A DNA stretch of 64,000 bases from a virus, in the IMG/VR virus record IMGVR_UViG_3300037200_000158, positions 1-64,000 of that record, one strand, 5' to 3'. How positions within the stretch are numbered: position 1 is the stretch's first letter; every line of letters starts with the position of its first letter. A program made the position numbers and the translations under genes. Below, one piece after another: positions 2,314 through 50,943 of the stretch. The notes below the pieces were generated by a model that ran no database searches, had not been told where the DNA came from, and saw only the letters and a list, made by a program, of their open reading frames with translations.

Positions 2314-2322
2314 TGTAATACG
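2314..2322. promoter_or_regulatory. TGTAWTACA-family palindrome (8/9 match; reads CGTATTACA on minus strand)
   Basis: Member of the recurrent motif family. Lies in the spacer upstream of minus-strand gene 1729..2112. Confidence 0.35.
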
Positions 2323-2385
2323 CAAGCGGTTTGACGGACGATGCGGAGGTCTAACTGCAAGTAGCTATCTTTATATAGCGTTAGC

Positions 2386-2880
2386 TTACGCAGTGCGGCG
2401 GCTGGAGCGTGGTGCGCTAACGGGTGCTTTTGTCATGAGGTCCCTGTACAGGTGGCCGTCTTGTAGCGCAACGTTCCTGACCTCTGGGTGTTCGAGGTCG
2501 GTCGCCGTGCCGAACACAGGCGAAAGGAGGATATATTTGCCGCGCTGGTGACCTTTACTGATCGCTTTGATGTGATCCGCTTTCGCGAGATCCTTCAGGC
2601 CGGATTGCACTGTTTCAACGCTCAAGCCCAGCGCTTCGGCGATCGCGCGAATACCCCGTTGCACCTGGTTGGACTTGCCGAATTGCCACTGGACAAGCTC
2701 TACGTAGACGAGCCGCGCGGCAGGACTCAGGCTCTTGTCGCGGGCTACCGAAGCCGGCACTTTGCCGTATTGGCGTGTTCGGAATTTCCGTACACCTTCG
2801 GGGGGTACCTGTGTTCGGAATTTCCGCTCACGTACAGACTTAAAACCTTCAGACGTGGATTTACGCTCTTTGCGCGTCAT
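2386..2880 (-). CDS. winged-helix/HTH DNA-binding protein (regulator or replication-initiator-like)
   Basis: Track ORF trimmed to MTRKERK (ATG 2880, ATGA overlap with upstream gene). SPAARLVYVELVQW...IRAIAEALGLSVETVQSGLKDL looks like a wHTH. Contains a 16-bp direct repeat. Confidence 0.65.
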   Translation of the reverse strand: MTRKERKSTSEGFKSVRERKFRTQVPPEGVRKFRTRQYGKVPASVARDKSLSPAARLVYVELVQWQFGKSNQVQRGIRAIAEALGLSVETVQSGLKDLAKADHIKAISKGHQRGKYILLSPVFGTATDLEHPEVRNVALQDGHLYRDLMTKAPVSAPRSSRRTA

Positions 2881-3242
2881 CCGCGGGTCCGCTCCAGCCG
2901 CTTCATTTGCGCGTCCCCGGCCCGTCGACAGGGCAGGCAGGTTGAACCTTGGTTCGTGATTCCCTCGCGCCAGCGCTTCGCGATGCACTCAACACCGAAC
3001 GGTGTGATCTCGTGCAGCCGCCCGCAGCATGAGCACTTTGCGCTCACGGTACCGTCTGGCCTGTGGAGTAAGAGCAACATCCTGTCCTGTATTGTACAGC
3101 ACGGATTATTGTCCTTGTCCTTCACGCACTCTTGGGACTTTGGGCCGAACAGCAAAGCCCTTCGTGTTCGCGCCCCACGGCACCGTCCGCCCTCACACAT
3201 TGCAATCTGTCGCGCACGCGCGATGTGTGGTTCAAAAGCCAC
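2877..3242 (-). CDS. Cys-rich small protein, start uncertain
   Basis: 121-aa track ORF with a GTG start (alternative ATG at 3200). KCSCCGRLHEITPFGVEC. Its stop overlaps the next ATG. Confidence 0.4.
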   Translation of the reverse strand: MAFEPHIARARQIAMCEGGRCRGARTRRALLFGPKSQECVKDKDNNPCCTIQDRMLLLLHRPDGTVSAKCSCCGRLHEITPFGVECIAKRWREGITNQGSTCLPCRRAGDAQMKRLERTRG

Positions 3243-3409
3243 ACTTTGAACACTTTCTGTATCGAATAAGCCACACCGGAACGAATTGACCCATTTGCAT
3301 AGTCCGAATCGGACGTGCTATGCTTCGTGCGTCAAAGCCGGACAGCAATTCCCCGTCCCCACGTGGACGCGGAGCCGGACTACCGCGAGGGTCTTTCAGT
3401 CCCGCGGCA

Positions 3410-3436
3410 ATAAAAAAGCCCGACCGAAGCCGGGCT
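3410..3436 (-). terminator. intrinsic terminator of recombinase operon
   Basis: On the minus strand AGCCCGGC-UUCG-GUCGGGCU is followed by a U run, immediately after the stop of 3453..3719. Confidence 0.75.
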
Positions 3437-3452
3437 GTCAATGTTATGGGTC

Positions 3453-3719
3453 TTACTTCTTCGGATCGTAGTGTTTCGCGAGATCATCGCCAGATAGCAC
3501 GAAGATATCGGTTTTCCAGTTGCCGGTCCAGGCGAGTAACAGAAGATCGTCCAGTTCGGCCCTCTTCACGATTGCATCCTTGCCTGTTCGGTCGTGCGCG
3601 TATTCCGCGTCACCGTTGACCGTGACGAGGATTAGTGTCATTTTGGCGTTGTTGCGGATGCCAGAAGGCGGTACGGAGTCGCCACCCAACACCCTGAAGT
3701 TCTTCGGATTGAAGATCAT
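3453..3719 (-). CDS. hypothetical protein
   Basis: Track ORF 3453..3725 trimmed to ATG 3719, which forms an ATGA overlap with the recombinase stop. Confidence 0.6.
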   Translation of the reverse strand: MIFNPKNFRVLGGDSVPPSGIRNNAKMTLILVTVNGDAEYAHDRTGKDAIVKRAELDDLLLLAWTGNWKTDIFVLSGDDLAKHYDPKK

Positions 3720-4291
3720 TTCCACCCCTTCAAGCGCTTGCCGGTGCTGTCGCGGCGCTTGTTCGTGATCTTCGCGTAGATCGCAGTATTGGCAATATTC
3801 GCGTGTCCAAGGTGATCCTGCACATCCGCAATGTCCTCGCCATGTTCGAGTAGCGAGGTTGCACAGCTGTGCCGCAGCGCGTGGAAGTGTGCCTTATCCG
3901 GCTGGATTCGAGCGGCCGCACAATACCGCTTCATCAGCACATCCAGCATTTGCTGGCTGATCGGCTGTCGGAAGCGAGACAGGAAGATCGGGCCCTCTGC
4001 TTCGCCACGCTCCCGCAACCAGGCGCGCAACGATTTCGTTTCGGCCTCGGTGAGGATATATTCCCCGCTGGTGTCAACGGCTCCGCACTTCAGCCGGTGG
4101 ACATACAGGCGCCCGACAGCCGGCCTATAGTCACCCATCTGTAGCAATCCAACCTCGGATGCACGCAACCCGCGGTGATAGGCCAGCCGGAAGATTGCGC
4201 GATCCCGCGGCGCTTCGATGACCGCGAAGAGCCGGTTAAGCTCCTCGTCGGTCAGATATTTGATGTTGCGCTTGCTTAATAGCCGAGCCAT
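3716..4291 (-). CDS. tyrosine recombinase, catalytic domain only (191 aa)
   Basis: Catalytic signature visible: AYHRGLRASE (Arg), HALRHSCAT (H-x-x-R), LGHANIANTAIYAKI (His...Tyr). No N-terminal core-binding domain; the size resembles FimB/FimE-type recombinases. Confidence 0.9.
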   Translation of the reverse strand: MARLLSKRNIKYLTDEELNRLFAVIEAPRDRAIFRLAYHRGLRASEVGLLQMGDYRPAVGRLYVHRLKCGAVDTSGEYILTEAETKSLRAWLRERGEAEGPIFLSRFRQPISQQMLDVLMKRYCAAARIQPDKAHFHALRHSCATSLLEHGEDIADVQDHLGHANIANTAIYAKITNKRRDSTGKRLKGWK

Positions 4292-4479
4292 TCGTACACC
4301 TCCTGAATGGTCGCGCCCGCGTTAAAGCGCTTCGCGTGCGTGTGGATCTTGCCGTTAGCGGCAATGACGACATCAGCCACTCCGATGCTATAGGGGCGTT
4401 CGCCTAGGATTCTAATGCCGTGGTCAGCTAAGATGCGCCGGATCAGCGCCTCATGTGCCCTGCTCTGCTGTGATCTCAT
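4276..4479 (-). CDS. hypothetical protein upstream of recombinase
   Basis: The track ORF starts at TTG 4548. The first ATG at 4479 has GAAAGGA upstream. Overlaps the recombinase start by 16 nt. Confidence 0.5.
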   Translation of the reverse strand: MRSQQSRAHEALIRRILADHGIRILGERPYSIGVADVVIAANGKIHTHAKRFNAGATIQEVYEWLGY

Positions 4480-4516
4480 CTCGGTTGCGGTCCTTTCCAC
4501 CGCATCCCGATCATAA

Positions 4517-4652
4517 CGCCAATTGGTTAATTTAGTCAATATCACCAATTGAGATTATCGAAAATAGTTTCTGTTGGTGCAAGTACATATAGTTAGTGCC
4601 AATCGGCGAAATCGGCTTCTGGCGCTGAATAGTGCTAATTTCACCAATTGGG
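4517..4652. promoter_or_regulatory. divergent control region with CCAATTGG-type operator candidates
   Basis: CCAATTGG at 4519-4526 and 4644-4651, CCAATTG at 4545-4551, CCAATCGG at 4599-4606. Direct repeat AAT(A/T)TCACCAATTG at 4538-4551 and 4637-4650. Lies between oppositely oriented gene sets. Confidence 0.5.
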
Positions 4653-4714
4653 AAGCGAATACAGCCCCGCCAACGCATCGCCGCGGCCTTCCTGAACCCT
4701 CAGCACCCCTCAAA

Positions 4715-4921
4715 ATGTCCGCTAACCGTCCTATTCTCAATCAGATCGAGTTGCGCCGCCTATCGGCCCTCTGCGACCTCGGCACAGCTTTGCAGCGCGG
4801 CAAAGCAGACAATGCGGCCGTCACTGTCGATGGCGTCGAGCTCGCCAGCCTGCCGGCTATCGAGCAATGGGCCGTTGGCCTCGGCCGCCGCGAGGCGCTC
4901 TACCGCACCGGCAGCAATTGA
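4715..4921 (+). CDS. hypothetical small protein (first plus-strand gene)
   Basis: Track ORF 4574..4921 trimmed to its first ATG (MSANRPILNQIELRRLS...). Confidence 0.5.
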   Translation: MSANRPILNQIELRRLSALCDLGTALQRGKADNAAVTVDGVELASLPAIEQWAVGLGRREALYRTGSN

Positions 4922-4941
4922 GCGAGCGAGAGTCCTCAGCG

Positions 4942-5112
4942 ATGCGACGCCAGCGGAGATCATATCGACCTGTCGACCTGCTCACGCTCGCCGCTATCAC
5001 CATCGGGTTCCTGCTGCTGCGTGGATGCAGCGCCGCGGTAGGTGATCGACCGCAGCGACCAGCAGCCGAGACGCCGGCCAACCTCGAGCGGCACCCTCGA
5101 GCGGTGGCCTGA
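4942..5112 (+). CDS. possible small membrane/lipoprotein-like peptide
   Basis: ATG-initiated part of track ORF 4867..5112: MRRQRRSYRPVDLLTLAAITIGFLLLRGCSAAV. Weak call. Confidence 0.3.
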   Translation: MRRQRRSYRPVDLLTLAAITIGFLLLRGCSAAVGDRPQRPAAETPANLERHPRAVA

Positions 5113-5228
5113 ACCCCAGCCGGGTCGACCCCACCCACTAGGGGGTATACCGGGCTTTGGCTGCGCGGTCTGGGAGTAGTCAGGCTCCGTTCAGGGCGGG
5201 AAAAACAAACCCGATAATTCTCGAACTT

Positions 5229-5237
5229 TGTATTACA
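5229..5237. promoter_or_regulatory. TGTATTACA palindrome
   Basis: Perfect 9-mer. Its last base lies 9 nt before ATG 5246. Confidence 0.55.
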
Positions 5238-5245
5238 CTGAGTTC

Positions 5246-5464
5246 ATGAAAATATTTGGCCGCACCACCGAACGAACGCAAATCGAACTCTCCGGTGTTC
5301 GCCTTGCGAGCGCGCTGCTCTGGCTGAAAGCAGGAGGGTGGTTCATCCAGATACGTGACGGCGTCGAGATTGAGATCTCCGAGGATCAGTACGACCGGCT
5401 CGCGGAGGAACTGAAGCATCTGACGCGGGAGGCCGGGACGAAGAAGAAGGCGGCGCAGCCGTGA
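5246..5464 (+). CDS. hypothetical small protein
   Basis: ATG 5246 within track ORF 5228..5464 (MKIFGRTTERTQ...). Confidence 0.6.
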   Translation: MKIFGRTTERTQIELSGVRLASALLWLKAGGWFIQIRDGVEIEISEDQYDRLAEELKHLTREAGTKKKAAQP

Positions 5465-5888: not shown

Positions 5889-5897
5889 AATGCTTTT

Positions 5898-6089
5898 ATG
5901 GCGAACGCGGGCAAGTGGCTGGCGAGGGATCTGGGTTCGTTCGACCCGCCGGCGTTTCCGGCTGAACCGGAACCCGTCACTCCGAAGGTCTTCCCGCTTG
6001 CCGAGCGGCTGACTGCGCAGGAACTGATTCTGCTCTACGGCTTTCGTGCTTCGCTTCCGCCCGGAAAGGTAGTACAATTTCCGGCATGA
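5898..6089 (+). CDS. hypothetical small protein
   Basis: 63-aa track ORF. The next gene starts by ATGA overlap at 6086. Confidence 0.5.
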   Translation: MANAGKWLARDLGSFDPPAFPAEPEPVTPKVFPLAERLTAQELILLYGFRASLPPGKVVQFPA

Positions 6090-6751: not shown

Positions 6752-6757
6752 GGCCGC

Positions 6758-8580: not shown

Positions 8581-8733
8581 CTACTTGCCCTCCTTCAGGT
8601 GAAAGAAGCGCCGGAGGATGTTGCGGATTGCGAGCGACGCGTTGCCTTCGGTTTTCTCTGTCGCGTAGTTCAGCACTTTTTCGTGCAGCGCGTCTTCCAT
8701 GCGAAGGATTACCGTCGTGGAGTTCTTGGGCAT
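8581..8733 (-). CDS. ribbon-helix-helix (CopG/Arc-like) protein
   Basis: Track ORF trimmed to MPKNSTTVILRMEDALHEKVLNYATEK...: a beta-strand plus two helices. First gene of the operon. Confidence 0.6.
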   Translation of the reverse strand: MPKNSTTVILRMEDALHEKVLNYATEKTEGNASLAIRNILRRFFHLKEGK

Positions 8734-8763: not shown

Positions 8764-8772
8764 TGTATTACA
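8764..8772. promoter_or_regulatory. TGTATTACA palindrome
   Basis: Perfect 9-mer in the divergent spacer, 9 nt before ATG 8781. Followed by CAATTG. Confidence 0.55.
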
Positions 8773-8780
8773 ATTGGCCA

Positions 8781-10180: not shown

Positions 10181-10366
10181 ATGCGTCCACATGCCATCTA
10201 CACCGCAACTTGCACATGCGGCGCACAGATTGAGTCCGAGACCCGTGAAGGCGTGTGCCGTTGCGGTATCTTCTTCGTCCTCGAATGGCCCTGCGTCGCC
10301 GGAGTTGATTCCGCCCCATCAGGTGTAATACAATCATCGGCATGCCTCGCACGACCCACATCATGA
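10181..10366 (+). CDS. possible zinc-ribbon peptide
   Basis: ATG-initiated part of track ORF 10037..10366 (MRPHAIYTATCTCG...CRCG). Overlaps the next gene start. Confidence 0.4.
   Translation: MRPHAIYTATCTCGAQIESETREGVCRCGIFFVLEWPCVAGVDSAPSGVIQSSACLARPTS
10324..10332. promoter_or_regulatory. TGTAATACA palindrome
   Basis: Perfect 9-mer, 10 nt before ATG 10342. Confidence 0.55.
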
Positions 10367-11326: not shown

Positions 11327-11541
11327 ATCACCTGCTCGGCCTCGCGAAGACGCAGCAGGAACTCCTGTTCATCGCCAGCCTGCTGGCCGCTTCGCCCTTC
11401 GGTAACAAGGGCGGTCCCGAGACTGCGCGCCTGATTCGCGAGCAACTCGCTCACTTCCGCGCTCTGCCGCGGCATGTCGATTCCTACGAAGACGAAGAAG
11501 ACGAATGTCTCAGGCCCACTGGAGCGACCCCGCCGCTGTAA
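11323..11541 (+). CDS. hypothetical small protein upstream of terminase
   Basis: 72-aa track ORF. Its position suggests a possible small-terminase-like role, but no motif supports this. Confidence 0.5.
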   Translation: MNHLLGLAKTQQELLFIASLLAASPFGNKGGPETARLIREQLAHFRALPRHVDSYEDEEDECLRPTGATPPL

Positions 11542-12338
11542 TTAGTCCCGTCGATGCGCTAGCTGAGATCGATCGGGAATTGAAGGGGGTTGAGGATGAG
11601 CGGAAGCGGCGGAGCCTAAACCGGATAGAGACATTCTTCAATGCGACGGGACCGCACCGTCGGGAACTCTACCCGCGCCATATGGCGTTCTTCCGCGCGG
11701 GGAAGTATTACCGTGCCCGCTGCTTCTCGGCCGGCAATCGCACGGGGAAAACTATTGCCGGTAGTTTTGAACTCACGTTACACCTCACGGGCCGGTACCC
11801 GGATTGGTGGCCCGGTAGAAGGTTCGACACCGCTGGACTCTACTGGGCATGCGGCACCACCAATGAGACCACCAAGAACATTCTCCAGGCTGAATTGCTC
11901 GGTCGTCTTGAAAAGGATACATCGGTCGGCGAGGACGTAATCGGAATGGGGACAGGGATGATCCCGGCTGCCGATATCGCGGGCGTTGAGTTCCACGCGC
12001 AGATCAGGGGCGCAATTAAGACGGCCTGGATAAGGCATGTGAGCGGCAAGCGCAGCGAGTTGGGGTTTCGCTCCTTCGAAGCTGGCCAGCCCGCCTTCGA
12101 GGGCGTTGCGAGGCAGGGAATACTTTTGGACGAGGAGCCGCCCCTTGATGTCTACACTGAGTGCCTCATGAGGCTTATGACGACCGGGGGCTGTCTCATG
12201 TTGACTTCCACCCCGCTCAAGGGACTCACTGATGTCGTAGCTCAGTTCATGCCCGATGGCGTTGTGCCAGAGTGGCAGACATGCAAAGTCTGCGGTAAGC
12301 AACTGATGGACTTTGATCACGCCTGCCCCGTGGAATGA
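11505..12338 (+). CDS. terL: terminase large subunit, N-terminal ATPase part only
   Basis: Walker A FSAGNRTGKT, Walker B GILLDEEPP, coupling motif LTSTPL. Ends after a CxxC...C tail with no nuclease domain. Confidence 0.85.
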   Translation: MSQAHWSDPAAVISPVDALAEIDRELKGVEDERKRRSLNRIETFFNATGPHRRELYPRHMAFFRAGKYYRARCFSAGNRTGKTIAGSFELTLHLTGRYPDWWPGRRFDTAGLYWACGTTNETTKNILQAELLGRLEKDTSVGEDVIGMGTGMIPAADIAGVEFHAQIRGAIKTAWIRHVSGKRSELGFRSFEAGQPAFEGVARQGILLDEEPPLDVYTECLMRLMTTGGCLMLTSTPLKGLTDVVAQFMPDGVVPEWQTCKVCGKQLMDFDHACPVE

Positions 12339-13894: not shown

Positions 13895-13995
13895 CCTTCT
13901 GACGATTCAGGTGCCGAGGTAAGTCGCCGGTAATCGGCGCATCGGTGCCGGGCGCTCGCAGCATCCGGGTTTCCCTCCTTACCTCGGATTCCTTC

Positions 13996-14037
13996 GGCTG
14001 TCGGCCGAACGGTTCGCCGCGAGCGCCTTTTTTCTCT
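13996..14037 (+). terminator. probable intrinsic terminator
   Basis: Imperfect GC-rich hairpin (GGCTGTCGGCCGAAC/GGTTCGCCGCGAGCGCC) followed by TTTTTTCTCT. Confidence 0.45.
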
Positions 14038-14128
14038 GAATCTGCGCGGTATAGAGCGGCGGGAAATCCGCCGACGGGGCTCTGACGATTCTTCCCTTCA
14101 TTGATTCCGCGCGGATTTGGAGGTAGAG

Positions 14129-14137
14129 TGTATTACA
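14129..14137. promoter_or_regulatory. TGTATTACA palindrome
   Basis: Perfect 9-mer, 12 nt before ATG 14149. Also overlaps the alternative ATG at 14137. Confidence 0.55.
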
Positions 14138-14148
14138 TGGAAAACACG

Positions 14149-15504: not shown

Positions 15505-16266
15505 ATGGCTTACAGTTATCTCGGGCAACGCTACGTCGTCCAGGCTTCGTGGGAGGACGCCGCTGCCCACTTGACCCAGGAAGCGCGAGAGGAATTGTGG
15601 TCCTCGATCCCCGAATACCAGCGTGATGCTCGCTCAAAGGGTATTCCGCAGTTGGGCGCAGGTGCCATTTTTGCAATTCCGGAATCTGAGATCGTCGTCG
15701 AGCCGCTAAAGGGCGGCATCCCGGCGCACTGGCCGCGCGGGTTCGGCATGGACCCTCACTGGTCGTTCACTTCGGTCACCTGGTGGGCGCAGGACCCTGA
15801 GTCCCTGACCTGCTACATGTACGACGAATACCAGCGCGAGAAGCAGCCTGTCGGCGTCCATGCGGCTTCGATCAAAGCCCGCGGCGACTGGATCGTCGGC
15901 GTGATCGACAAGGCAGCCGATCAGACCGAAGGCGACGGCGAGAAGTTGCTCGAAATGTATCTGCGCGCAGGACTGCATGTCGTGAAGTCTTCGGCCAGCA
16001 AGGGCGTTGACGCCGGGCTACAGGACATGCTCGACGCGATGCACGAAGGGCGCTTCAAAGTCTTCAGCACCTGTCAGAAGTGGATCAAGGAATTCAGGAT
16101 CTACCGGCGCAACGACAAGGGCGTGATCGTTAAGAAGGCTGATCATCTTTTAGACTCGTCACGCTATTTCTGGAACGATGGTCGCGCGTTGATGCGCGTC
16201 AAGCCGAAGCAGGCGAACTTCCGTCCTTCCGCCCCAATCGCATCTCCCCGCGCATGGATGGCCTGA
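15505..16266 (+). CDS. terL: terminase large subunit, C-terminal nuclease part only
   Basis: YVVQASWEDAAAHL...DARSKGIPQLGAGAIF...GFGMDPHW...VIDKAAD...DHLLDSSRYF is collinear with the post-ATPase linker and RNase-H-like nuclease of TerL proteins. Confidence 0.85.
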   Translation: MAYSYLGQRYVVQASWEDAAAHLTQEAREELWSSIPEYQRDARSKGIPQLGAGAIFAIPESEIVVEPLKGGIPAHWPRGFGMDPHWSFTSVTWWAQDPESLTCYMYDEYQREKQPVGVHAASIKARGDWIVGVIDKAADQTEGDGEKLLEMYLRAGLHVVKSSASKGVDAGLQDMLDAMHEGRFKVFSTCQKWIKEFRIYRRNDKGVIVKKADHLLDSSRYFWNDGRALMRVKPKQANFRPSAPIASPRAWMA

Positions 16267-16268: not shown

Positions 16269-16277
16269 TGTATTACA
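16269..16277. promoter_or_regulatory. TGTATTACA palindrome
   Basis: Perfect 9-mer, 10 nt before ATG 16287. Confidence 0.55.
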
Positions 16278-16286
16278 ATGGACGGC

Positions 16287-18149: not shown

Positions 18150-18204
18150 TCACCACGCTATCTAACATTTACAGTAAAGTGCAGCGTCGCGACGACACAG
18201 CACA

Positions 18205-20693: not shown

Positions 20694-20701
20694 CCCACGA
20701 T

Positions 20702-20710
20702 TGTAATACA
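20702..20710. promoter_or_regulatory. TGTAATACA palindrome between divergent starts
   Basis: Perfect 9-mer, 11 nt before plus-strand ATG 20721 and 9 nt before minus-strand ATG 20693. Confidence 0.6.
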
Positions 20711-20720: not shown

Positions 20721-21185
20721 ATGAGAGTATCCCATCTGCCGGAAGTGACGCCCCTGAGTTTCGCTCAGAGCGCACTGCTCCGCCTAGAAGACGAACTATC
20801 GCGCAGGGGGATTGGCTCCCATAACGTATGCTTCCCGAATCTGGACGATGGTGGTTCCTCCCCAAAAGGCGTCGTTGCCGTAGATCTCGAAATCAGGGAA
20901 GCCGACCGCAGGTTGCCACTTAGCGATATCGAGGCCCGCTTCCTCGCGCCATGCGTAGCTGTGCTGGCAAATGAAATCGAGTCTAGGTATGATCCCCGCA
21001 AGGGACCATTCCGATGCCAGCCTATCGAATTACCGCCCGGCACGCTACCGTGGTCTGAGCTCGTGACCAGCAAAAGGCTCGCGGTACGTGTTTTGGCGCA
21101 GATCAAGTTGACGAAGCGCGGCACGGCACGCAAGCGTCGTCCGTTCCCATACCAGATCCGTATCGAAGTAGCGCAAGCCCAATGA
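20721..21185 (+). CDS. hypothetical protein
   Basis: Track ORF 20535..21185 trimmed to MRVSHLPEV. Confidence 0.55.
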   Translation: MRVSHLPEVTPLSFAQSALLRLEDELSRRGIGSHNVCFPNLDDGGSSPKGVVAVDLEIREADRRLPLSDIEARFLAPCVAVLANEIESRYDPRKGPFRCQPIELPPGTLPWSELVTSKRLAVRVLAQIKLTKRGTARKRRPFPYQIRIEVAQAQ

Positions 21186-30091: not shown

Positions 30092-30100
30092 CGTATTACA
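30092..30100. promoter_or_regulatory. CGTATTACA (8/9 palindrome family)
   Basis: Ends 8 nt before the 5' end of the tRNA-like gene. Confidence 0.45.
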
Positions 30101-30107
30101 CTGTGGC

Positions 30108-30180
30108 TTCGGTGTGGCGCAGCGGTCAGCGCGTCGGCCTCATAAGCCGAAGGTCGTGGGTTCGAGTCCCTCCACCGTTA
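30108..30180 (+). tRNA. tRNA-Met-like (CAU anticodon), imperfect stems
   Basis: Hand fold: D arm GCGC-AGCGGTCA-GCGC, anticodon arm TCGGC-CTCATAA-GCCGA, variable loop AGGTC, T arm GTGGG-TTCGAGT-CCCTC (one U.U mismatch). The acceptor pairs only 5 of 7 positions. No encoded CCA. Confidence 0.55.
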
Positions 30181-30428: not shown

Positions 30429-30615
30429 CCGACTTGTGATACAGTCTTAATACTTTCCGTTTGCTCCGTACCCATGAGCATGCGGCACCCAAGAACTTTA
30501 CCTCTCCTGATGCGGCCGCTTCTTTAGGCGGGGGCGGCCGCAACGGTTTCTTCGCTTGCGAGACTCCCGCAAAATATGGATCGACTCGACGCACGGCGAG
30601 GTTCCTCACGTCGGA

Positions 30616-32057: not shown

Positions 32058-32081
32058 CCTGATCTTCTGTCATTCCGTCAT

Positions 32082-32090
32082 TGTAATACA
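32082..32090. promoter_or_regulatory. TGTAATACA palindrome
   Basis: Perfect 9-mer, 15 nt before ATG 32105 and 25 nt from minus-strand ATG 32057. Confidence 0.5.
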
Positions 32091-32104: not shown

Positions 32105-32836
32105 ATGGCAACCTGTTTAGATCTCTGCACCGACGCGATGATTCTCTGCGGAGAATTGGCTCAAGGTCAGACTCCTTCTCCTGAAGACGCGCAATTCCTG
32201 TTCACCCGCATTAACTCCGTCCTCGATAACCTAAGCCAGGACGAGGCCTGGATCTTCTCGCGCACGATCCAGACCTACCAACTGACGTCCGGCATCGCCA
32301 GTTACGCCATTGGCCCCACAGCGCCAGCGCCCTTCAACACGCCGCGCCCGAACAAGATCGACTTCGCCCGCATCCTGATCCAGATCGCCGGAGCGTACGT
32401 CGGCGTGAAGGACCTGGACATCATCGACTATGCGCGGTACGTCGAGTACTCGGACAAGACGACTTCGGGGCGAACGGCTGAAAGCCTCTACTACGACAAT
32501 TCCGTTCTGACTGGGAACGTTATCCTGTACCCTGTCCCGACGTGCGCCGCGCCCACGCAGTTGGAACTCACTTTCTGGACGCAGTTGCCGCAATTCGCCT
32601 CGCTGGTCTCGGTGTTCAACTTCCCGCCCGGCTACTACGAAGCGCTTGTGCTCCTGCTCGCGGTCGCGATCATGCCTGCGTACAACAAGCCGCTCGATCA
32701 GGTGACTATCGGTCGCGCCGAACAGTGCGTGCAGCGCATCAAGACCATCAACAAGATGATCCTTATGCCCGGCTTACCGCCCGCGGCGTATCTCCCGCCG
32801 CAAGCTCCACCAGCACCACAGCAGGCCCAGCAGTAA
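32105..32836 (+). CDS. virion structural protein (tail adaptor/tubular-like), paralog 1
   Basis: 243-aa track ORF. Shares an architecture with 34622..35500 (LN...L...E; RP..I; LYPVP/LWPVP; PPGYYEAL/PPAYQELL). Confidence 0.6.
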   Translation: MATCLDLCTDAMILCGELAQGQTPSPEDAQFLFTRINSVLDNLSQDEAWIFSRTIQTYQLTSGIASYAIGPTAPAPFNTPRPNKIDFARILIQIAGAYVGVKDLDIIDYARYVEYSDKTTSGRTAESLYYDNSVLTGNVILYPVPTCAAPTQLELTFWTQLPQFASLVSVFNFPPGYYEALVLLLAVAIMPAYNKPLDQVTIGRAEQCVQRIKTINKMILMPGLPPAAYLPPQAPPAPQQAQQ

Positions 32837-34621: not shown

Positions 34622-35500
34622 ATGGGTGCTCTCGGCGCGCAATTCAATCAGGCACAATTCGGACAGGCTCAACCGGGCTACGGGCCTGCTCTGCCCGGCG
34701 CGCTGTTCGCGGCAAACCTCGCCTATACGGCGTACCGGATCGCGGGCATTTTGCCGGAGCCTGGGCGCGGGTATAGTCAGTCCGAAGGCTGGGATGCGCT
34801 CAATGTTCTGAATTCGATTCTGAACAGCTTCCAGGCGGAACGCTTACTCGTTTATGCGTTTCTGCGCAGCGTCTTTGAGATCACGCCGAACCAGCAGGAA
34901 TACAAGATCGGGAACACGCCGATAATCGTCAATGGCGTCGCAACGATGCCGGACTGGACAGGCATTCCGAGGCCGGAAACCCTTCAACTCGCTGGATATA
35001 TCTTCTCGAATTCTTACCCCAACGTTGAAAATCCCATGCGGATTCTCAGCTATCAGGAATGGGCCGCGCTCTCTCCAAAAGATCTGACGAGCCCGATTGA
35101 GTACTACCTCTACTTTCAGCCCGATATCCCCAACGCCACGGCCTTTCTGTGGCCTGTCCCGACCGATCCTTCGGTTCTCGTGGCTCTCTACACCTGGCAG
35201 AACATCCAGACCGTTCCGTCGCTCGGTACCGCCATGATCCTGCCTCCGGCCTACCAGGAACTGCTGGAATACGGACTAGCGATCAGACTAGCCGGAATGT
35301 TCCCGCGCCGTTCGAAACTCGATCCGAACGCCGGGGCGACGTACTACACCGCGAAGACGAAGGTTATGGCCGCGAACACCGACATGCTGGCGCTAAAAGC
35401 CCAGTGTGAGTTGGGAAGCGGCGGTGCCCGGCAGGCCAAGGGGATCTTCAATATCATTTCTGGGACCTATGTTGGCGGTATCGGCGGCACGATGCCCTGA
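34622..35500 (+). CDS. virion structural protein, paralog 2
   Basis: 292-aa track ORF. See 32105..32836. Confidence 0.6.
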   Translation: MGALGAQFNQAQFGQAQPGYGPALPGALFAANLAYTAYRIAGILPEPGRGYSQSEGWDALNVLNSILNSFQAERLLVYAFLRSVFEITPNQQEYKIGNTPIIVNGVATMPDWTGIPRPETLQLAGYIFSNSYPNVENPMRILSYQEWAALSPKDLTSPIEYYLYFQPDIPNATAFLWPVPTDPSVLVALYTWQNIQTVPSLGTAMILPPAYQELLEYGLAIRLAGMFPRRSKLDPNAGATYYTAKTKVMAANTDMLALKAQCELGSGGARQAKGIFNIISGTYVGGIGGTMP

Positions 35501-36247
35501 TGGTGGCGTAAGCGGGGCAATCTCAACCCTACGCCAACTTCTACCGAGAACAATGCTTGATATCGTTCCCTGGTCGATCCCCAAGGAGCGACCGACTGCT
35601 ACCTGTCTCTCTCCAGCGGAGACCCGGCGCTTGACTTCGGCAGCAATCGCATCGTTCAATTTTGCGTTCCAATGCTGCTCTCCGAACTGGGTTCTATCCT
35701 TTTCCATCGCGTCGCGCATGTTGTCTGTATGGCTGCCAGCGAATAGGTGGACGGGGCGAACGCAAATCCTTGTATCGCAACGATGGCAGACGAACAGCCC
35801 CTCGGGGACGGGCCCTTTCGCAATTTCGTAGGATTTTCGGTGAGCATAAACCAATCCGTCACCTTCGTTGACAAATCCGTATCCAGCCTTTCCTGGAGGG
35901 TACGGGAAAATCAGGCAGGGGTATTTCGACCATAGTTGAGACAGGTCGTCCGTCAGCGTTGCCAGTGTTGATTGGAGCCAATACATTCGATTCATCCTCG
36001 GACGGATATGAATCGGCCTAAAGCAGAGCGGCCTTCGGCAGTGCGAAGACAGGTCATGATGCGCCGGGATCTCCCCGAAAACATGGCGGAATGCGGTGAT
36101 TCTGAAGTGCTGCTTGAAGCCGACATACCGCGCGTTTGGGTGCGGCCACTCCAAGCACGGGTAGTCGCTCCACGGGCGCGAAAGATCGTCGTCCAGCGCG
36201 GTCACTTGCTGAATCAGCCACTGAAGTCTGGTAATCTTGTTCTGCAT
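35393..36247 (-). CDS. free-standing HNH (HNH_3-type) homing endonuclease with HTH
   Basis: ATG 36247 with GGAAAGGA upstream. GYGFVNEGDGLVYAHRKSYEIAKGPVPEGLFVCHRCDTRICVRPVHLFAGSHTDNMRD, plus a degenerate first copy and the HTH GRSLGIDQGTISSIV. Its 3' end overlaps 34622..35500. Confidence 0.8.
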   Translation of the reverse strand: MQNKITRLQWLIQQVTALDDDLSRPWSDYPCLEWPHPNARYVGFKQHFRITAFRHVFGEIPAHHDLSSHCRRPLCFRPIHIRPRMNRMYWLQSTLATLTDDLSQLWSKYPCLIFPYPPGKAGYGFVNEGDGLVYAHRKSYEIAKGPVPEGLFVCHRCDTRICVRPVHLFAGSHTDNMRDAMEKDRTQFGEQHWNAKLNDAIAAEVKRRVSAGERQVAVGRSLGIDQGTISSIVLGRSWRRVEIAPLTPPSGHRAADTANIGPRNDIEDPLGLPGTAASQLTLGF

Positions 36248-40139: not shown

Positions 40140-40148
40140 CGTATTACA
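40140..40148. promoter_or_regulatory. CGTATTACA (8/9 palindrome family)
   Basis: 12 nt before ATG 40160. Confidence 0.45.
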
Positions 40149-40159
40149 CTCAGGAATAT

Positions 40160-40873: not shown

Positions 40874-41223
40874 ACATCTCCCTCCAGACCCTGCTTGAAC
40901 CGTCGTACGTGCCAGCTGCCAACGCGGCGATCTTCACGAATACCACGGGGCAGTCTGTATTGCTGCAAAAGGTCACGTTCACGAACAACTCGAATGCTGC
41001 CGTCACGCTCTCGCTGAACTGGGTTCCTTCCGGCGGAGCGGCAGGCGCGGCGAACCTGATCGTCAACGCTACTTCGGTTTCCCCGAAGGGCCCGACGAAC
41101 GACGGGATCTACGAGTGCATCGGGCTGGAGGGGCATATTCTTGCGCCGGGAGATTCGCTTTGGGCGGTCGCAGGCACGGCGGATACGCTTGTTGCGGCGA
41201 TCTCAGGGTCGCTTATCAGTTAG
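40870..41223 (+). CDS. hypothetical protein
   Basis: 117-aa track ORF. ATGA overlap. Confidence 0.55.
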   Translation: MNISLQTLLEPSYVPAANAAIFTNTTGQSVLLQKVTFTNNSNAAVTLSLNWVPSGGAAGAANLIVNATSVSPKGPTNDGIYECIGLEGHILAPGDSLWAVAGTADTLVAAISGSLIS

Positions 41224-41874
41224 GCGTCGAAAATCGATCACCCAGACCCAAGGATTTTCTGCCCACGAGCTTGTGCCGTTGATCTGGTTCCACAGGCATT
41301 CGTAGCACTGCTTGGCCGTGTCGAACCCACCGCCTTCTATCTTATCCGGACTACCCCAGTAATAGACCGAACCAGCGGGTAATCCATATTGAGCTTCGTA
41401 CGTCTTTCCGAAGATTCCTTCCGATATTGCGTCCGTTTCATTGATATCCTGCAATCGCTCCACGCGCACGCCGGTTACCTCAAGATTGATGCGGCTGGCC
41501 CAGCGGGGCATGTGGATGGAGGTACGCCATGCTCCGTCGTAATCATCGTTGCGGCCAAGGTATCCAGCCCGATACTGAACCGCAAATGACCACGGATTCG
41601 CGACGTGGTAATATCCCCTGGAAAGGGACCCCGTAATCGCCTCGTACGATCCGTGAACCGCAGCCGCCCACGTTTCGCGCACCCATAGCCGATCACCAGG
41701 CGCTCCGTAGGGGCAGCAATCCCGCGCAAACTGCGTTTTGTTCCGCCAAAGATCGCATTTCGAGTCTCGCCACGAAGCGTCATTCGGCGTAGTGATCGAA
41801 GGTTGCGGCTTCACGATGCGCCGCGTCTGAGTCTTGCGCCCGTCCAGAATCGCGCGGACCATCGGGCCGCTCAT
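41203..41874 (-). CDS. ASCH/PUA-like domain protein (long form)
   Basis: Track ORF trimmed to MSGPMVRAILDGRKTQTRR...GAPGDRLWVRETW...SIHMPRWASRINLEVTGVRVERLQDI. Confidence 0.6.
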   Translation of the reverse strand: MSGPMVRAILDGRKTQTRRIVKPQPSITTPNDASWRDSKCDLWRNKTQFARDCCPYGAPGDRLWVRETWAAAVHGSYEAITGSLSRGYYHVANPWSFAVQYRAGYLGRNDDYDGAWRTSIHMPRWASRINLEVTGVRVERLQDINETDAISEGIFGKTYEAQYGLPAGSVYYWGSPDKIEGGGFDTAKQCYECLWNQINGTSSWAENPWVWVIDFRRLTDKRP

Positions 41875-41891
41875 TAAAATCGGTCGCTCTT

Positions 41892-42317
41892 TCACTTCAG
41901 CCCATCTGGCAACGGCATATTGACTTCGAACAGACCCTGTGCGCCCTTGAACGGAATCGGCTCCGGGAAGTAGATGACAGTGCCGCTCCGCTGCCACGCA
42001 TAGCGCGTAGGATGCCAGTCTCCCCATCGCCGCTCCGTTTCAGATGGCTCCGGCATGCGGCTCATTTGCGAACAGCCGATCACGTCAACAATCCCGATCA
42101 GTGCGCCGAACGGGAGCGCATTGAGAAGCCCGGCGTGATTGAGATCCTGCACGAGTTCCTCGTTCATCAAAGCTGCGCGCACGTCGCCGTCCCTCTTCTT
42201 CGCGGCGTGAATGAGTAGGGGTCCCCGATGGGCGGTATACCAACTTCTGGTCTCGAACTCCTTTAACGTCGTCATCCACGCACTCGCCCACGGCTGCCAC
42301 AGCGATATCGCTTTCAT
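41892..42317 (-). CDS. ASCH domain protein
   Basis: Track ORF trimmed to MKAISLWQPWASAWMTTLKEFETRSW.... ATG lies 10 nt from the palindrome. Confidence 0.65.
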   Translation of the reverse strand: MKAISLWQPWASAWMTTLKEFETRSWYTAHRGPLLIHAAKKRDGDVRAALMNEELVQDLNHAGLLNALPFGALIGIVDVIGCSQMSRMPEPSETERRWGDWHPTRYAWQRSGTVIYFPEPIPFKGAQGLFEVNMPLPDGLK

Positions 42318-42326
42318 ACAAAGGAT

Positions 42327-42335
42327 TGTAATACA
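42327..42335. promoter_or_regulatory. TGTAATACA palindrome between divergent starts
   Basis: Perfect 9-mer centred in a 27-nt spacer, 10 nt from ATG 42345 (+) and 10 nt from ATG 42317 (-). Confidence 0.6.
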
Positions 42336-47466: not shown

Positions 47467-47471
47467 CCCTA

Positions 47472-47927
47472 ATGCCCATTACCTACGCTGTAGAGCGCCT
47501 TCCCGCCGTCAAAGCCGAAATCGAAGCCTGGGCACCCGCGCACTGGTGGGAGATCGCGATCTTCAAAGACAAAATCAAGCTCGATGTGGACTGGCCGCGT
47601 TACCAGGCAATCGACGACTCCGGCATCCTTCGCATTATCACCGCTCGCGACGACGGCAAACTGATCGGCTATTTCGTCGGCTTCCTTGCCGAGAATCCGC
47701 GCTACAAGGGCTTGCTCCGCATGCAGGCCGACATCTACTACGTTGCGCGGCAGTACCGCGGCAAGCACGTCGGTAGCGGCATGTTCCGCTTTATGGAGCA
47801 GGTCTCGCGCGATCTCGGCGCGGTGGAGATCGTGGTTGGCCACAAAGCCCATAGCGACAATAGCAAGTTCCTCGAACATCTCGGGTACGAACTGATCGAA
47901 CGAACGCACGGCAAGTTGCTCATCTAA
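47472..47927 (+). CDS. GNAT family N-acetyltransferase
   Basis: LIGYFVGF...ARQYRGKHVGSGMFRFMEQ matches the (Q/R)-x-x-G-x-(G/A) acetyl-CoA motif and its context. Confidence 0.75.
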   Translation: MPITYAVERLPAVKAEIEAWAPAHWWEIAIFKDKIKLDVDWPRYQAIDDSGILRIITARDDGKLIGYFVGFLAENPRYKGLLRMQADIYYVARQYRGKHVGSGMFRFMEQVSRDLGAVEIVVGHKAHSDNSKFLEHLGYELIERTHGKLLI

Positions 47928-47942
47928 CCGGCACCATCCCAA

Positions 47943-48938
47943 ATGCCTATTTCCATACCAACAGCCCTCCTGATCGGAGCGGGCGTATCGGGCGGAGCCT
48001 CGCTCGCCTCCGGCATCATTGGCTCGTCTGCCGCCAGTTCTGCAGCCAATAAAGAAGTCACCGCCGCCCAGCAGGCCGAGCAGACTCTCCAGACTGCCGG
48101 GCAGACGGCGAATTCCACGCTTCAGGGCGTCGAACAGTCGCAACTCGCCGGATACTCGCCCTACGTACAGGCCGGGACCGCCGGACTTACGAACCTGACA
48201 GCGGCGCTGGCGCCGGGCGGTTCGCTCTCTCAGCAGTTTTCGTTCAATCCCTCGACGGTTTCGCAGGACCCGGCGTATCAGTTCCAGCTCCAGCAAGGCT
48301 TGCAGGCTGTACAGCGCGCCGCGGCTGCTGGCGGCACTCTTAACTCCGGCGGCACGCTGAAGGCCCTCACGCAGTACGGGCAAGGCGTAGCGGCGTCGTA
48401 CGAGAACCAGGACTACACGCAGGCGCTGAACACCTACAACACGAATCGCTCGACCAACCTCGGGAATATCCAGACGCAGTTGAACGCGGGAACCTACGGC
48501 CAGAACGGGACTTCCTCGGCGCTCCAGAACTACGGCAACCTGTTCTCGTCGAACACGCTGGGGGTTGGAAGTGCTATCGCAAACCAGCAGACCAATATCG
48601 GCAATGAGCAGGCGGCGGGAATTATCGGCGGAGCAAACGCGTGGTCCGGCGCGCTGGGAGGCATCGCCGGCGCCGCAAACGCATACGTCGGAGGCACCGC
48701 TCAGTTGCAGCAACTACAGCAGTTACTCGGCGCGCTCAACGGTGGCTCAGGTGGCGCGGGGAACAGCACAAATGTACCGGCCGGAGCAAGTGGACCATAC
48801 TCCGGTAACAATCCCGGTGGATATCTGCCGTCTGCGGCACCGTCGGTCGTGCAGACCGCCCCGAGCGCTTTCAATCTCGCTGGCTATGGCGGTTCGCCGG
48901 TGAATACGTCCTACGGGGCACCGGGGGTTGGATACTAG
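47943..48938 (+). CDS. internal virion/ejection protein (putative)
   Basis: 331 aa, Gly/Ala/Gln/Ser-rich. DPAYQFQLQQGLQAVQRAAAAGGTLNSGGTLKAL is a motif seen in podovirus internal proteins (from memory). Confidence 0.55.
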   Translation: MPISIPTALLIGAGVSGGASLASGIIGSSAASSAANKEVTAAQQAEQTLQTAGQTANSTLQGVEQSQLAGYSPYVQAGTAGLTNLTAALAPGGSLSQQFSFNPSTVSQDPAYQFQLQQGLQAVQRAAAAGGTLNSGGTLKALTQYGQGVAASYENQDYTQALNTYNTNRSTNLGNIQTQLNAGTYGQNGTSSALQNYGNLFSSNTLGVGSAIANQQTNIGNEQAAGIIGGANAWSGALGGIAGAANAYVGGTAQLQQLQQLLGALNGGSGGAGNSTNVPAGASGPYSGNNPGGYLPSAAPSVVQTAPSAFNLAGYGGSPVNTSYGAPGVGY

Positions 48939-48941
48939 ATC

Positions 48942-50567
48942 ATGGCCGCAGATCCCAACATCATCCTCGACTACAAGCCCGCGCAGATCGCCCCGCCGGA
49001 ATCTCCCCTGGCTGCCTACGGGCAGGTGCTCGGCGTCGCAAATGCCGCGCAGAATCTTCAGGCTGGCCAGCAGAAACTACAATCGAACGCGCTCGAACTC
49101 CAGCAGCAGCAGCGGGCGGTTGATTACCAGAAGGCGTTTACCGGGTCCGTTCAAAAGCACACGACCCAGAACGCCGACGGTTCGCTGTCAACCGACTGGA
49201 GCGGAATCCAGGGCGACATCACCAACGCCGGGTACGGGCCGGAAGCGCTCGCGCTCAACAAGAACATCCTCGAAGCTAAGGAGGCTGGGCTCAAACTCAT
49301 TGAAACGCAGCATCTGGCGGATCAGGCCAAAGTCGCAGGCTTCGCGAGCGCATTGAATTCACTCCCACCGGTGGATCCGAAAGCGCCCGGTGCCAGCGAC
49401 CAGATTGCGGCATTCAACGGCGCATTTCCGAACGTTCTTGCCAACTCAGTCCAGAAGGGCGTCATCACGCCCCAGCAAGCACAGCAGTACGGCGCGATGT
49501 TCCAGCAGGGCGGCAATACCTGGACGCCGCAACTCCAGATGCAGATCGATGGCGCGAAGAACGGCGCGCTGACAGCCCAACAGGCGATTGAGCATGGCTC
49601 TAAGTTAATCGACCAGGCGCGGGAGCAGACGCAGGTTGATTCGGTAGTGACCCATAACAAAGCCGAAACGGCTAAGATCAACGCCGAGATGGCAGATAAG
49701 GCGAAGTCTGACGCCGCGGCGCTCCTGTCTAATGCGACCTCCGCCGCAGACTACGATGCGAAGAAGGCGACGGTCGACCCGAAGGTGGCCGCGCAGTTGC
49801 CGGATTCGAAGGGGCTCGATTTCTCTGATGACGGAATTGAAGGCACGCGCGACAAAATCCTCAAGTCCGGCATGAACGCCGAACAGGTCGCCAACTACGA
49901 GCAGAAGAAAATCAGCGTAGCATCCCTCGCAGCGGCTCGCGAAGCGAATTCGATTGCGCGGCAGACCTCAAATGATATCCGCCTTCAGATGCTTCAGGGG
50001 AAGCCGAATCCCGCGCAGGTTCAGGCCTCGAAAGAAATCGACAAACTACAAACGCAAGAAAACCCGCTTTGGAGCAAACTCGCTCAACTGAACTCCGCGC
50101 TGGGCGACGGTTCGAAGTCCGCGGATCTGTTCATCCCTGAAAAGGGAGAGCAGCCGGTAAAGATGTCCGTGAAGTCCGGCGGCGATGACGACACAGCTAA
50201 ACAATTGACGGCGGACATGGTCGCTCGCCGGAACGCGATTGCCAGCCAACTGAAGGGCTTTGTGAAGCAGAAGTATGACCTCGGCGCGAAGAACGGCGCT
50301 GAGCCCACCGTGCCGCTTCAGGACGTGCTGGATAAGATCGATGCAGCGGTGCCGGGCCAGAAAGCCGATCCGGTTGACGGGCAGACGCAGGAGCCGAATC
50401 CGGGCCCAGCGAAAACACCAAGGACACTTAATCCGGCGGCGAATCCGGCGGATGCTGTAACGCTTCAGGGATATCTCAAGCAGGCAGGCTGGACTGGTGG
50501 CGCACCGACCGCGCAGCAGAAGGCAAAAGCAGCACAACTGGCAAAAGCTGATAACTATCAGTTCTGA
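48942..50567 (+). CDS. internal virion/ejection protein (putative)
   Basis: 541 aa, Gln/Ala/Lys-rich and helical. Assigned by position. Confidence 0.55.
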   Translation: MAADPNIILDYKPAQIAPPESPLAAYGQVLGVANAAQNLQAGQQKLQSNALELQQQQRAVDYQKAFTGSVQKHTTQNADGSLSTDWSGIQGDITNAGYGPEALALNKNILEAKEAGLKLIETQHLADQAKVAGFASALNSLPPVDPKAPGASDQIAAFNGAFPNVLANSVQKGVITPQQAQQYGAMFQQGGNTWTPQLQMQIDGAKNGALTAQQAIEHGSKLIDQAREQTQVDSVVTHNKAETAKINAEMADKAKSDAAALLSNATSAADYDAKKATVDPKVAAQLPDSKGLDFSDDGIEGTRDKILKSGMNAEQVANYEQKKISVASLAAAREANSIARQTSNDIRLQMLQGKPNPAQVQASKEIDKLQTQENPLWSKLAQLNSALGDGSKSADLFIPEKGEQPVKMSVKSGGDDDTAKQLTADMVARRNAIASQLKGFVKQKYDLGAKNGAEPTVPLQDVLDKIDAAVPGQKADPVDGQTQEPNPGPAKTPRTLNPAANPADAVTLQGYLKQAGWTGGAPTAQQKAKAAQLAKADNYQF

Positions 50568-50934
50568 CTTTCAGACAATACCCCTCCTTTGGTCTTTCAG
50601 ACCACGCTGCTCTATTAGCAGTTCTTTGAAAGAGAGAATGGTGACCATCTTCCTGCCTTTGCCCGGACCATTTTCGGGAAGGCCGCAGCTCTTTAACCTG
50701 AGTCGCTATCTCAGGTGACTGCCCGCGCCGTCTCCGCGCGTACGATGAAAGTCTGCCGGTGAACCGAAGTGTCCCGGATTCCATCTGGGTTGATGACCGC
50801 CCATAAACTCAACTGGCAGTGGGATTTTTAGCTCCTGCATCTACTCGTATTAGTCCCCACCAAACGCCCCGAGGATCTCCGTGAGGCGCAACTTCAGCGC
50901 AGGTTTGCCGCCTGCCCGGCTGAAGTGTGGGCTT

Positions 50935-50943
50935 TGTAATACA
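50935..50943. promoter_or_regulatory. TGTAATACA palindrome
   Basis: Perfect 9-mer, 8 nt before ATG 50951 of a 26-codon ORF. Confidence 0.55.

Follow-up and report, generated by a model that had tools for sequence, protein, structure and literature searches.

A recurrent nine-base palindrome in a phage of probable acidobacterial host: predicted leaderless extended -10 promoters and a possible shared operator

The DNA considered here is the 64,000-nucleotide stretch at positions 1 to 64,000 of the IMG/VR virus record IMGVR_UViG_3300037200_000158 (hereafter the window), and the element in question is a nine-base palindrome, TGTAWTACA, which recurs between its genes. The window encodes a P22-like portal and coat together with an integrase; its sequence is matched by a 60.6-kb Logan contig, and the portal is also present on a 94.5-kb JGI contig; SRR11577221 and two ENA assemblies contain the phage as well. 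About ten portal relatives have 76-89% identity, several of them on contigs of 87-94 kb, which indicates that the full genome is probably about 90 kb long. With a genome of roughly 94 kb, some 30 kb lie beyond the window, and the absences reported below apply to the window. More distant portals (39-49% identity) are found inside 311-kb and 446-kb contigs of a Bryobacteraceae metagenome-assembled genome and of Candidatus Sulfopaludibacter. As these are the portals of prophage relatives, the host is most likely an acidobacterium of the Bryobacterales (Acidobacteriota). A megablast search of the GenBank phages with 22 kb of the sequence returned only a 77-bp match and no annotated relative, and PHROGs and Pfam recognised almost nothing among 30 small proteins, which makes function-based reasoning on regulators impossible. 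The comparisons below were made with the portal-centred loci of five relatives (L002/L016, L009, L010, L011 and L012) and with three right-arm loci (L017, L018 and L019), the close relatives at the compared loci having 76-81% portal identity to the window.

An earlier reading of the same letters (the original prediction) had listed nine perfect copies of TGTAWTACA, at 5229, 8764, 10324, 14129, 16269, 20702, 32082, 42327 and 50935, with fewer than one to be expected by chance. Both statements are confirmed: the window holds nine copies against 0.07 expected, and none of 100 dinucleotide-preserving shuffles reaches nine. When up to one mismatch is allowed there are 14 sites against 2.7 expected, the one-mismatch set consisting of 2314, 24022, 30092, 30435 and 40140. 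Three of these (2314, 30092 and 40140) had been named as variants and were indeed found, but 24022 and 30435 had been missed and 2314 is probably a chance hit. Among all 7- to 10-mers scored against a second-order background, TGTAWTACA and its sub- and superstrings are the most over-represented words; a second enriched word, CTTCAGGA, sits in coding sequence and was dropped. All nine perfect copies are intergenic, as originally described, and so are the variants at 30092 and 40140, whereas intergenic DNA makes up only 11.7% of the gene-called region. Conservation is confined to 11 bp, and the flanks are unrelated among the sites. A literature search for the word TGTAWTACA returned only incidental primer or sequence matches.

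With two further bases the palindrome acquires a direction. When both flanks are read, the extension TACA[AC]T is present in exactly one orientation at each of the nine perfect palindromes, and the chance of all nine having at least one such side is small (P about 4e-7). The side that carries TACA[AC]T leads to an ATG after 5-7 nt in 8/9 perfect sites. TAnnnT is likewise present in one orientation only at 30092, 40140, 30435 and 6068, the last being a degenerate member. The first T of TAnnnT stands 11-13 nt before the ATG at 5246, 8781, 10342, 16287, 20693 (minus strand), 42317 (minus strand) and 50951, and the geometry TAnnnT-N5-8-ATG is found at 8 of the 85 called starts against 2.2% of all ATGs. 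The distances from motif to ATG in the original prediction were correct throughout, as were the spacing of 27 nt between the divergent ATGs of 20702 and of 42327, and the 8 nt between the motif at 30092 and a tRNA.

On the plus strand, TGTATTACACT (5229-5239) consists of the 9-mer followed by CT, which gives the hexamer TACACT, and leads after 6 nt to ATG 5246 of a 72-aa gene, a start also chosen by an independent gene caller. TGTATTACAAT (8764-8774) stands 6 nt before ATG 8781 of an N6/N4 DNA methyltransferase gene, and the same palindrome is 30 nt upstream of the divergent start, at 8733, of a gene for a ribbon-helix-helix (RHH) protein. TGTAATACAAT (10324-10334) precedes ATG 10342 of a 125-aa gene by 7 nt, with a -35-like TTGATT at 10305-10310 and an 18-nt spacer. 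TGTATTACAAT recurs at 16269-16279, 7 nt before ATG 16287 of a GroES-like gene; at 14129 and 16269 there is also an ATG in frame that overlaps the motif or directly adjoins it. CGTATTACACT (40140-40150) is followed by a 9-nt gap containing AGGA and then by ATG 40160 of a 119-aa secreted-looking protein, and TGTAATACAAT is found again at 50935-50945, 5 nt before ATG 50951 of a 26-codon open reading frame (ORF). Behind this ORF a strong, terminator-like hairpin and a T-run end 3 nt before ATG 51071 of a giant gene, and 50935-51070 might yield a small RNA, encode a leader peptide or act as an attenuator of that gene. The degenerate member GGTAGTACAAT (6068-6078) lies 7 nt from ATG 6086 of a 221-aa gene.

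Other sites face leftward. TGTATTACAAT on the minus strand is 6 nt from ATG 20693 of a 95-aa gene inserted after the portal gene (20700-20710) and 7 nt from ATG 42317 of a two-gene insertion at 41203-42317 (42325-42335), and at 32080-32090 it faces an 86-88-aa gene whose start, 32051 or 32057, leaves a leader of about 16 nt. At these three divergent sites (20702, 32082 and 42327) the TACAAT side points toward the short minus-strand genes, and the plus side reads TACAGA or TACAAA. The plus-strand gene at 32105 begins 14 nt from its palindrome behind TACAAA, and the plus side of 42327 reads TACAAA, 7 nt and ATG 42345. The independent gene caller did not call the plus-strand ORF that follows 20702 (20721-21185), and this ORF failed a filter on GC content at third codon positions (GC3). 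The site at 14129, here called site 'a' (14101-14139, plus strand), contains a conventional promoter, TTGATT (14101-14106)-17-TAGAGT (14124-14129)-7-ATG (14137), and when it is read rightward the 9-mer (14129-14137) falls at about -7 to +2. Read leftward, its palindrome is the perfect 11-mer TGTAATACACT (14127-14137, minus strand), with the nearest minus-strand ORF, 13979-14101 (40 aa), 25 nt off.

Among the variants, CGTATTACACT (30092-30102, plus strand) has its hexamer ending 5 nt before the 5' end, at 30108, of a tRNA-Met(CAU), with a possible -35 box, TTGCAA, 18 nt upstream. The tRNA itself (30108-30180) has a good score of 59.9 bits, yet its first two acceptor-stem pairs are U:U mismatches, and transcription is predicted to begin around tRNA positions 2-3. 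The molecule may lack a 5' leader when made, or it may be something other than a standard tRNA. TGTGATACAGT (30435-30445, plus strand) has the canonical TGTGn extension, and about 65 nt further on there is a 13-bp hairpin at 30511-30542; the segment 30435-30552 is possibly a short non-coding unit with a transcript of about 95 nt ending in this GC-rich hairpin, and Rfam gave no match for it. The sites at 30435 and 6068 appear to be additional real members. Conversely, TGTAATACG (2314-2322), with one mismatch, has no TAnnnT either way and hence no defined strand; 2314 and 24022 are probably chance hits, since neither has a -10-like extension in either direction.

In bacterial extended -10 promoters a single nucleotide separates T-17 R-16 T-15 G-14 from the hexamer, and the perfect consensus is TGTGcTATAAT; the extension is read by sigma domain 3 and renders the -35 box dispensable, and T-17 G-16 by itself is accepted as a partial motif (PMC6212719). 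The 9-mer maps to -17 to -9 of such a promoter; T-17, G-16 and T-15 are correctly spaced, but -14 is A at every site except 30435. TGTAwTACAAT is identical to the canonical TGTGnTATAAT at 9 of 11 positions, A-11 and T-7 included. The original prediction had seen no match to sigma70, which holds only for the bare 9-mer. The -35-like hexamer at 10324, and perhaps that at 30092, are the only ones at these sites, and such scarcity is expected for the extended -10 class. In none of the three thirds of the window did a generic sigma70 -35/-10 scan give enrichment relative to shuffled sequence. Published work recognises bacterial leaderless genes by a TANNNT whose first T lies about 12 nt ahead of the start codon, and such genes are predicted in three of three Acidobacteria genomes, where they account for 9.7-19.4% of genes (PMC3160421).

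The same geometry is seen in the homologous promoters of the relatives. The GroES-like gene starts behind TAnnnT-N6-7-ATG in six of six phages, and the letters before the gap are TGTAT-TACAAT in the window, TGTAG-TACAAT in L010, TGTCG-TACAAT in L011, CGTAT-TACACT in L009, TGTGT-TAAGAT in L012 and gcg-TAAGAT in L002. In the family of the 10342 gene, TACAAT, TAAGAT or TACGCT is followed by 7 nt and ATG in three phages (the window, L002 and L011). Likewise, site 'a' keeps TTGATT-17/18-TAnnnT-7-ATG in five of six phages. Both TGTGT and TGTGA occur in homologous promoters of the relatives. The position and the leaderless geometry are thus conserved while the upstream word drifts, which is the behaviour of a promoter. 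No comparable start-associated word is seen in L008, L013 and L014, more distant relatives whose portals are 39-49% identical. The -10-like element with leaderless or near-leaderless messages that was originally suggested therefore gains support, as far as the letters can tell, from the TACA[AC]T polarity, the 5-7 nt gap and the same geometry in five relatives. Three automatic gene starts also change: 16287 is the homologous start (MRIS...) in the relatives where the automatic caller of the public records had 16254, 10342 fits the length of its family where the caller had 10444, and 42345, in place of 42423, is confirmed by eight homologs aligned over the full 483 aa.

At the sites 20702, 32082 and 42327 the window has minus-strand gene insertions that are missing from relatives; the two-gene insertion 41203-42317 is absent from L017, L018 and L019. 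The right-arm loci L017-L019 have no counterparts of 32082, 40140, 42327 and 50935, because the minus-strand insertions are absent from them. These insertions look like moron-type units that bring or acquire their own leftward promoter.

The original prediction took the element to be bidirectional because it is palindromic. This does not hold as a general rule, as T-7 is present in one orientation per site, and at the three divergent sites the plus strand has TACAAA or TACAGA. Symmetric bidirectional promoters have overlapping -10 boxes with starts 18 bp apart (Warman et al. 2021; PMC10268837). The element resembles this class, in which a dyad at -10 allows polymerase to go either way, at one site of L009, where the palindrome CGTAATACG has TAnnnT on both sides and bidirectionality is plausible, though not general. 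In the window, unlike in that class, the hexamers do not overlap, the divergent ATGs at 20702 and 42327 are 28 bp apart, and T-7 is found on one side only.

A short and strict lineage-specific word with no -35 at most sites could also be a promoter recognised by a sigma factor or RNA polymerase of the phage's own. The T4 late box, TATAAATA, depends on the phage sigma gp55, and the early promoters of the Streptomyces phage phiC31 depend on an unidentified form of the holoenzyme; both share with the element a near-invariant word in the -10 region that is reused genome-wide without -35. The approximately 30 kb outside the window could encode such a factor, and the giant ORF holds a sliding-clamp module, a clamp being used in T4 late transcription. 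However, no sigma or RNA polymerase domain was found in the window among the precomputed Pfam hits of the called genes or in added scans, and the element, unlike those of T4 and phiC31, fits the rules of host sigma70, A-11 and T-7 included. In the relatives, the homologous promoters are of the ordinary TAnnnT kind, in some cases with TTGATT as -35, and the sites precede early-looking and structural-region genes alike. T7-like promoters, for their part, comprise about 20 bp that span the start and are read by a phage polymerase, whereas here 11 bp are conserved and the window has no polymerase domain. The idea of a phage-specific promoter served by a phage polymerase, as put forward originally, thus gives way to an architecture of host sigma70 type, and a phage sigma factor or polymerase is very improbable.

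The motif further occupies the position of the Shine-Dalgarno (SD) sequence, and a palindrome is identical in the transcripts of both strands, as would suit a signal at the RNA level that either replaces the SD or is processed to trim messages to leaderless ones. SD use is low in this genome: several genes behind the motif lack an SD, as had been pointed out, but they are not special in this, since an SD-like 4-mer is found in only 29 of 85 genes. Many starts lie behind C/A-rich, G-poor stretches, which suggests that initiation in the phage and its host is largely SD-independent. An RNA signal is nevertheless extremely improbable, as one copy stands before a tRNA, the motif is absent from other genes of the phage that lack an SD, and a 3-bp stem with a 3-nt loop would be an unstable RNA structure. 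In addition, the one-sidedness of T-7, and the fact that relatives keep TAnnnT but not the upstream word, point to recognition of DNA by polymerase. A MazF-type or other RNA cleavage site was rejected for its conflict with the tRNA site and with the T-7 polarity.

The element shares T-17 G-16 T-15, A-11, T-7, the usual lack of a -35 and the 5-7 nt to ATG with the extended -10 leaderless promoters of Actinobacteria, Deinococcus-Thermus and, by prediction, Acidobacteria. It differs from them in that -14 is always A (except at 30435, which reads TGTGA) and -10 always C, and from the host promoters of this class, which are degenerate at -10 to -8, in that nine bases are invariant and form a perfect palindrome. 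Relative to the extended -10 consensus, the only departures are G-14 to A and T-10 to C, and these are exactly the changes that make a palindrome from TGTGnTATA. A-14 and C-10 do not vary among the sites (12 of 12), whereas the relatives accept either G or C at -14 and, at -10/-9, either A or G. In the window, 13 sites match the consensus within two mismatches, no more than in shuffles, and eight of the 13 are one single word out of 405 possible two-mismatch variants. It could be argued that these are promoters and nothing else, near-consensus extended -10 elements whose palindrome is a by-product of TGTA meeting TACA, with no regulator involved. Phage promoters are often far nearer to one consensus than host promoters, all window copies share one register when read in the TAnnnT direction, and TACAAT and TACACT hexamers are common in relatives without the full 9-mer. 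The T-17 G-16 extension, moreover, counts as a functional partial motif in its own right (PMC6212719). Such a reading is unlikely, however, because it leaves unexplained the invariance of A-14 and C-10, the identity of eight of the 13 consensus-like matches, and the occurrence in a sister lineage of a different exact 9-mer in three promoter registers.

This sister lineage (L002/L016 and L012) has no TGTAWTACA. It carries a non-palindromic word, TGTAAAGCA, of which each of two loci has three copies where 0.05 would be expected. At sites a, b and d the word falls at -7 to +2 (TAAGAT-gtaaagc-ATG), at the post-portal site (TGCTT-TACAAT-6-ATG) the opposite strand carries it over -17 to -9, and at the RHH promoter it occupies -28 to -20. 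A word of constant identity that slides over the core promoter looks like a protein-binding site. The reverse complement of TGTAAAGCA contains TGCTTTA, which we take to be the core of the T4 MotA box; its position and orientation differ, and the resemblance was treated as coincidence.

The strict symmetry of the window's word suggests that a small phage regulator also binds the 9-mer, and the prime candidate is the 50-aa RHH protein encoded at 8581-8733 on the minus strand. Pfam alone returned nothing for this protein. A profile of it and four positional homologs matched, among solved structures, the viral RHH protein AvtR at E=4.2e-5 and then the CopG family, ArtA and NikR, so that the RHH assignment of the original prediction stands for this gene. 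For a second gene, at 61764-61916, confirmation failed: its product is RHH-like by eye, with a beta-strand, ATIRVP, followed by two helices, but neither the RHH profile nor PDB sequences supported the assignment. The window also encodes a wHTH protein, at 2386-2760. In five of five lineages the RHH gene, which keeps its map position, has a 9-mer of the TGTnnnnCA type 19-60 nt upstream. This 9-mer reads TGTAATACA in the window, CGTATTACG in L009, TGTAACACA in L011 and TGTAAAGCA in L002, and L010 has an inverted pair, TGTATCACA and TGTGATACA, 14 nt apart. The word that adjoins the RHH gene is the word that recurs elsewhere in the same phage, and the predicted DNA-reading beta-strands of the RHH proteins differ in all five lineages. 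The alternative of an operator for a dimeric regulator, also raised originally, is strengthened by the presence of a 9-mer beside the RHH gene in every lineage, the binding itself remaining putative. A small RHH gene beside a short dyad site that overlaps divergent promoters is also the arrangement of the RHH repressors Arc and Mnt of P22, CopG, MetJ and AvtR of archaeal viruses. The MetJ box is 8 bp long, and a site of 9 bp suits one RHH dimer. The known RHH operators differ in having at least two subsites at one or few loci, whereas about a dozen solitary sites are distributed genome-wide here, with putative binding.

A methylation site was rejected as the main explanation, as the N6/N4 methyltransferase has no homolog in L002, L009 and L011, yet a 9-mer persists beside the RHH gene in all three. 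A different possibility is that the sites are operators or stoperators only, scattered repressor sites that silence the genome as in mycobacteriophage L5 and have no promoter role. About a dozen copies in short intergenic spaces of the early and structural regions of an integrase-bearing phage would agree with this, and related lineages have distinct cognate words, as in the Cluster A phages, whose stoperators are 13-bp asymmetric sites that lie mostly outside promoters and are oriented with transcription (PMC6550527). The resemblance to the Cluster A systems (L5 gp71, Bxb1) thus comprises the many intergenic copies of a lineage-specific word, the temperate-type genome, the distinct words of related phages and the one copy that adjoins a presumed regulator gene. 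Unlike stoperators, which are bound by a monomer and act on elongation, the element is a 9-bp palindrome inside promoters, all of its sites are promoter-shaped, four of them face leftward, and the candidate binder is an RHH protein and not an L5-type repressor. No repressor of the L5 gp71 family was among the Pfam and PHROG hits, which come from libraries that recognise almost nothing in this phage, and no dedicated search was made. The one-sided [AC]T extension, the fixed 5-7 nt to the start even in long intergenic regions and the tRNA site would be unexpected for elongation blocks, and an operator or stoperator role alone is quite improbable.

The interpretation that we prefer, with a probability of roughly 0.6, is a composite one, in which the element is an extended -10 leaderless promoter and its -17 to -9 segment also serves a dimeric phage regulator as operator. 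From the enrichment, polarity, geometry and positional conservation established in silico, we infer the polymerase and the transcription starts. The RNA polymerase of the host (Bryobacterales) would read the polar 11-bp element TGTAW + TACA[A/C]T as an extended -10 of the sigma70 kind, with no need for a -35, and transcription would start on or a few bases from the ATG, or from the 5' end of the tRNA, giving leaderless messages. About 13 units would be served in this way, namely small accessory genes, minus-strand inserted genes, the methyltransferase, the GroES-like gene, the tRNA and two short terminator-bounded units. This promoter layer is highly probable. The operator layer, for which protein binding is deduced with the help of the RHH fold, also an in silico result, falls a little short of even odds. 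Here a dimeric phage regulator, with the RHH protein of 8581-8733 as prime suspect, would bind the 9 bp as well, and by covering -17 to -9 it would shut all such promoters together. More tentatively, a two-position change may have made the promoter core a 9-bp palindrome for one RHH dimer, which would switch about a dozen leaderless promoters on or off jointly, those of small RNAs included, and the sister lineages may have swapped the word (TGTAAAGCA, TGTGATACA, CGTAWTACG) along with the RHH recognition strand, resulting in lineage-specific 'immunity-like' regulons among phages of Acidobacteria.

Several points weigh against this composite interpretation. For the promoter layer, -14 is A, although in model organisms contacts with sigma region 3 depend chiefly on a G at this position, and the acidobacterial RNA polymerase may have a promoter consensus of its own. 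The plus-strand genes at the three divergent sites lie behind TACAAA or TACAGA without T-7, which leaves their expression unexplained. For the operator layer, every copy within the window, the leftward one of site 'a' included, can be explained as a promoter alone, and the argument from multiple registers comes from the sister lineage. RHH proteins usually bind arrays of at least two subsites, so that solitary 9-bp sites are atypical; the window sites are solitary, and an adjacent pair of subsites is found only at the RHH gene of L010. Furthermore, L009 has nearly the same 9-mer as the window with an RHH protein that is only about 30% identical and has different beta-strand residues, and a simple co-variation of word and RHH protein is therefore not demonstrated. 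With five lineages, all of them different, no statistical test of association is possible.

Some further features of the genome deserve mention. The giant ORF (51071-59509, 2,812 aa) combines a 2'-5' RNA ligase/Acb1-like domain, a methyltransferase and all three domains of the DNA polymerase III beta clamp. At the same position the relatives have ORFs of 3,974 aa, 3,458 aa and more than 2,333 aa with other enzymes (helicases, SNF2), and the giant ORFs of the window and the relatives resemble injected 'polyvalent' proteins. The large terminase is split into a Terminase_6N gene (11505-12338) and a Terminase_6C gene (15505-16266) with about 3.2 kb between them, where 8-9 small genes are located, including one with a KTSC domain; the split is common to all five close relatives. 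An HNH endonuclease gene (35393-36247, minus strand), located directly before a VanY-type endolysin gene, extends over the 3' end of the gene at 34622-35500 and may be a homing-endonuclease insertion. A small inverted repeat, ACGTC-gtgat-GACGT, is conserved in all six phages 15-25 nt before the portal start; its form in the window is CGTCGCGACG, at about 18170-18200, and the repeat may act as an operator in translation or as a signal for processing.

There are known cases of phage promoters with a conserved sequence, of leaderless promoters with a -10 only, of RHH operators and of repressor sites spread over a whole genome. What is new, as judged from sequence, is the setting in an uncultured phage of Acidobacteria, the two deviations from consensus that yield a palindromic core reused about a dozen times, and the apparent lineage-specific swaps of the word. 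To our knowledge, almost nothing is known of gene expression in phages of the Acidobacteria, a dominant and hard-to-culture soil phylum. The present analysis offers a testable promoter architecture for such phages, an extended -10 without -35 and with leaderless messages, and its geometry has already allowed the correction of three automatic gene starts (10342, 16287 and 42345). The 11-bp module could serve as a compact and perhaps repressible promoter for genetic tools in acidobacteria. If the operator layer is true, the phage would have built a regulon by making the promoter core the site of its regulator, with a rewiring by lineage comparable to that of the mycobacteriophage stoperators.

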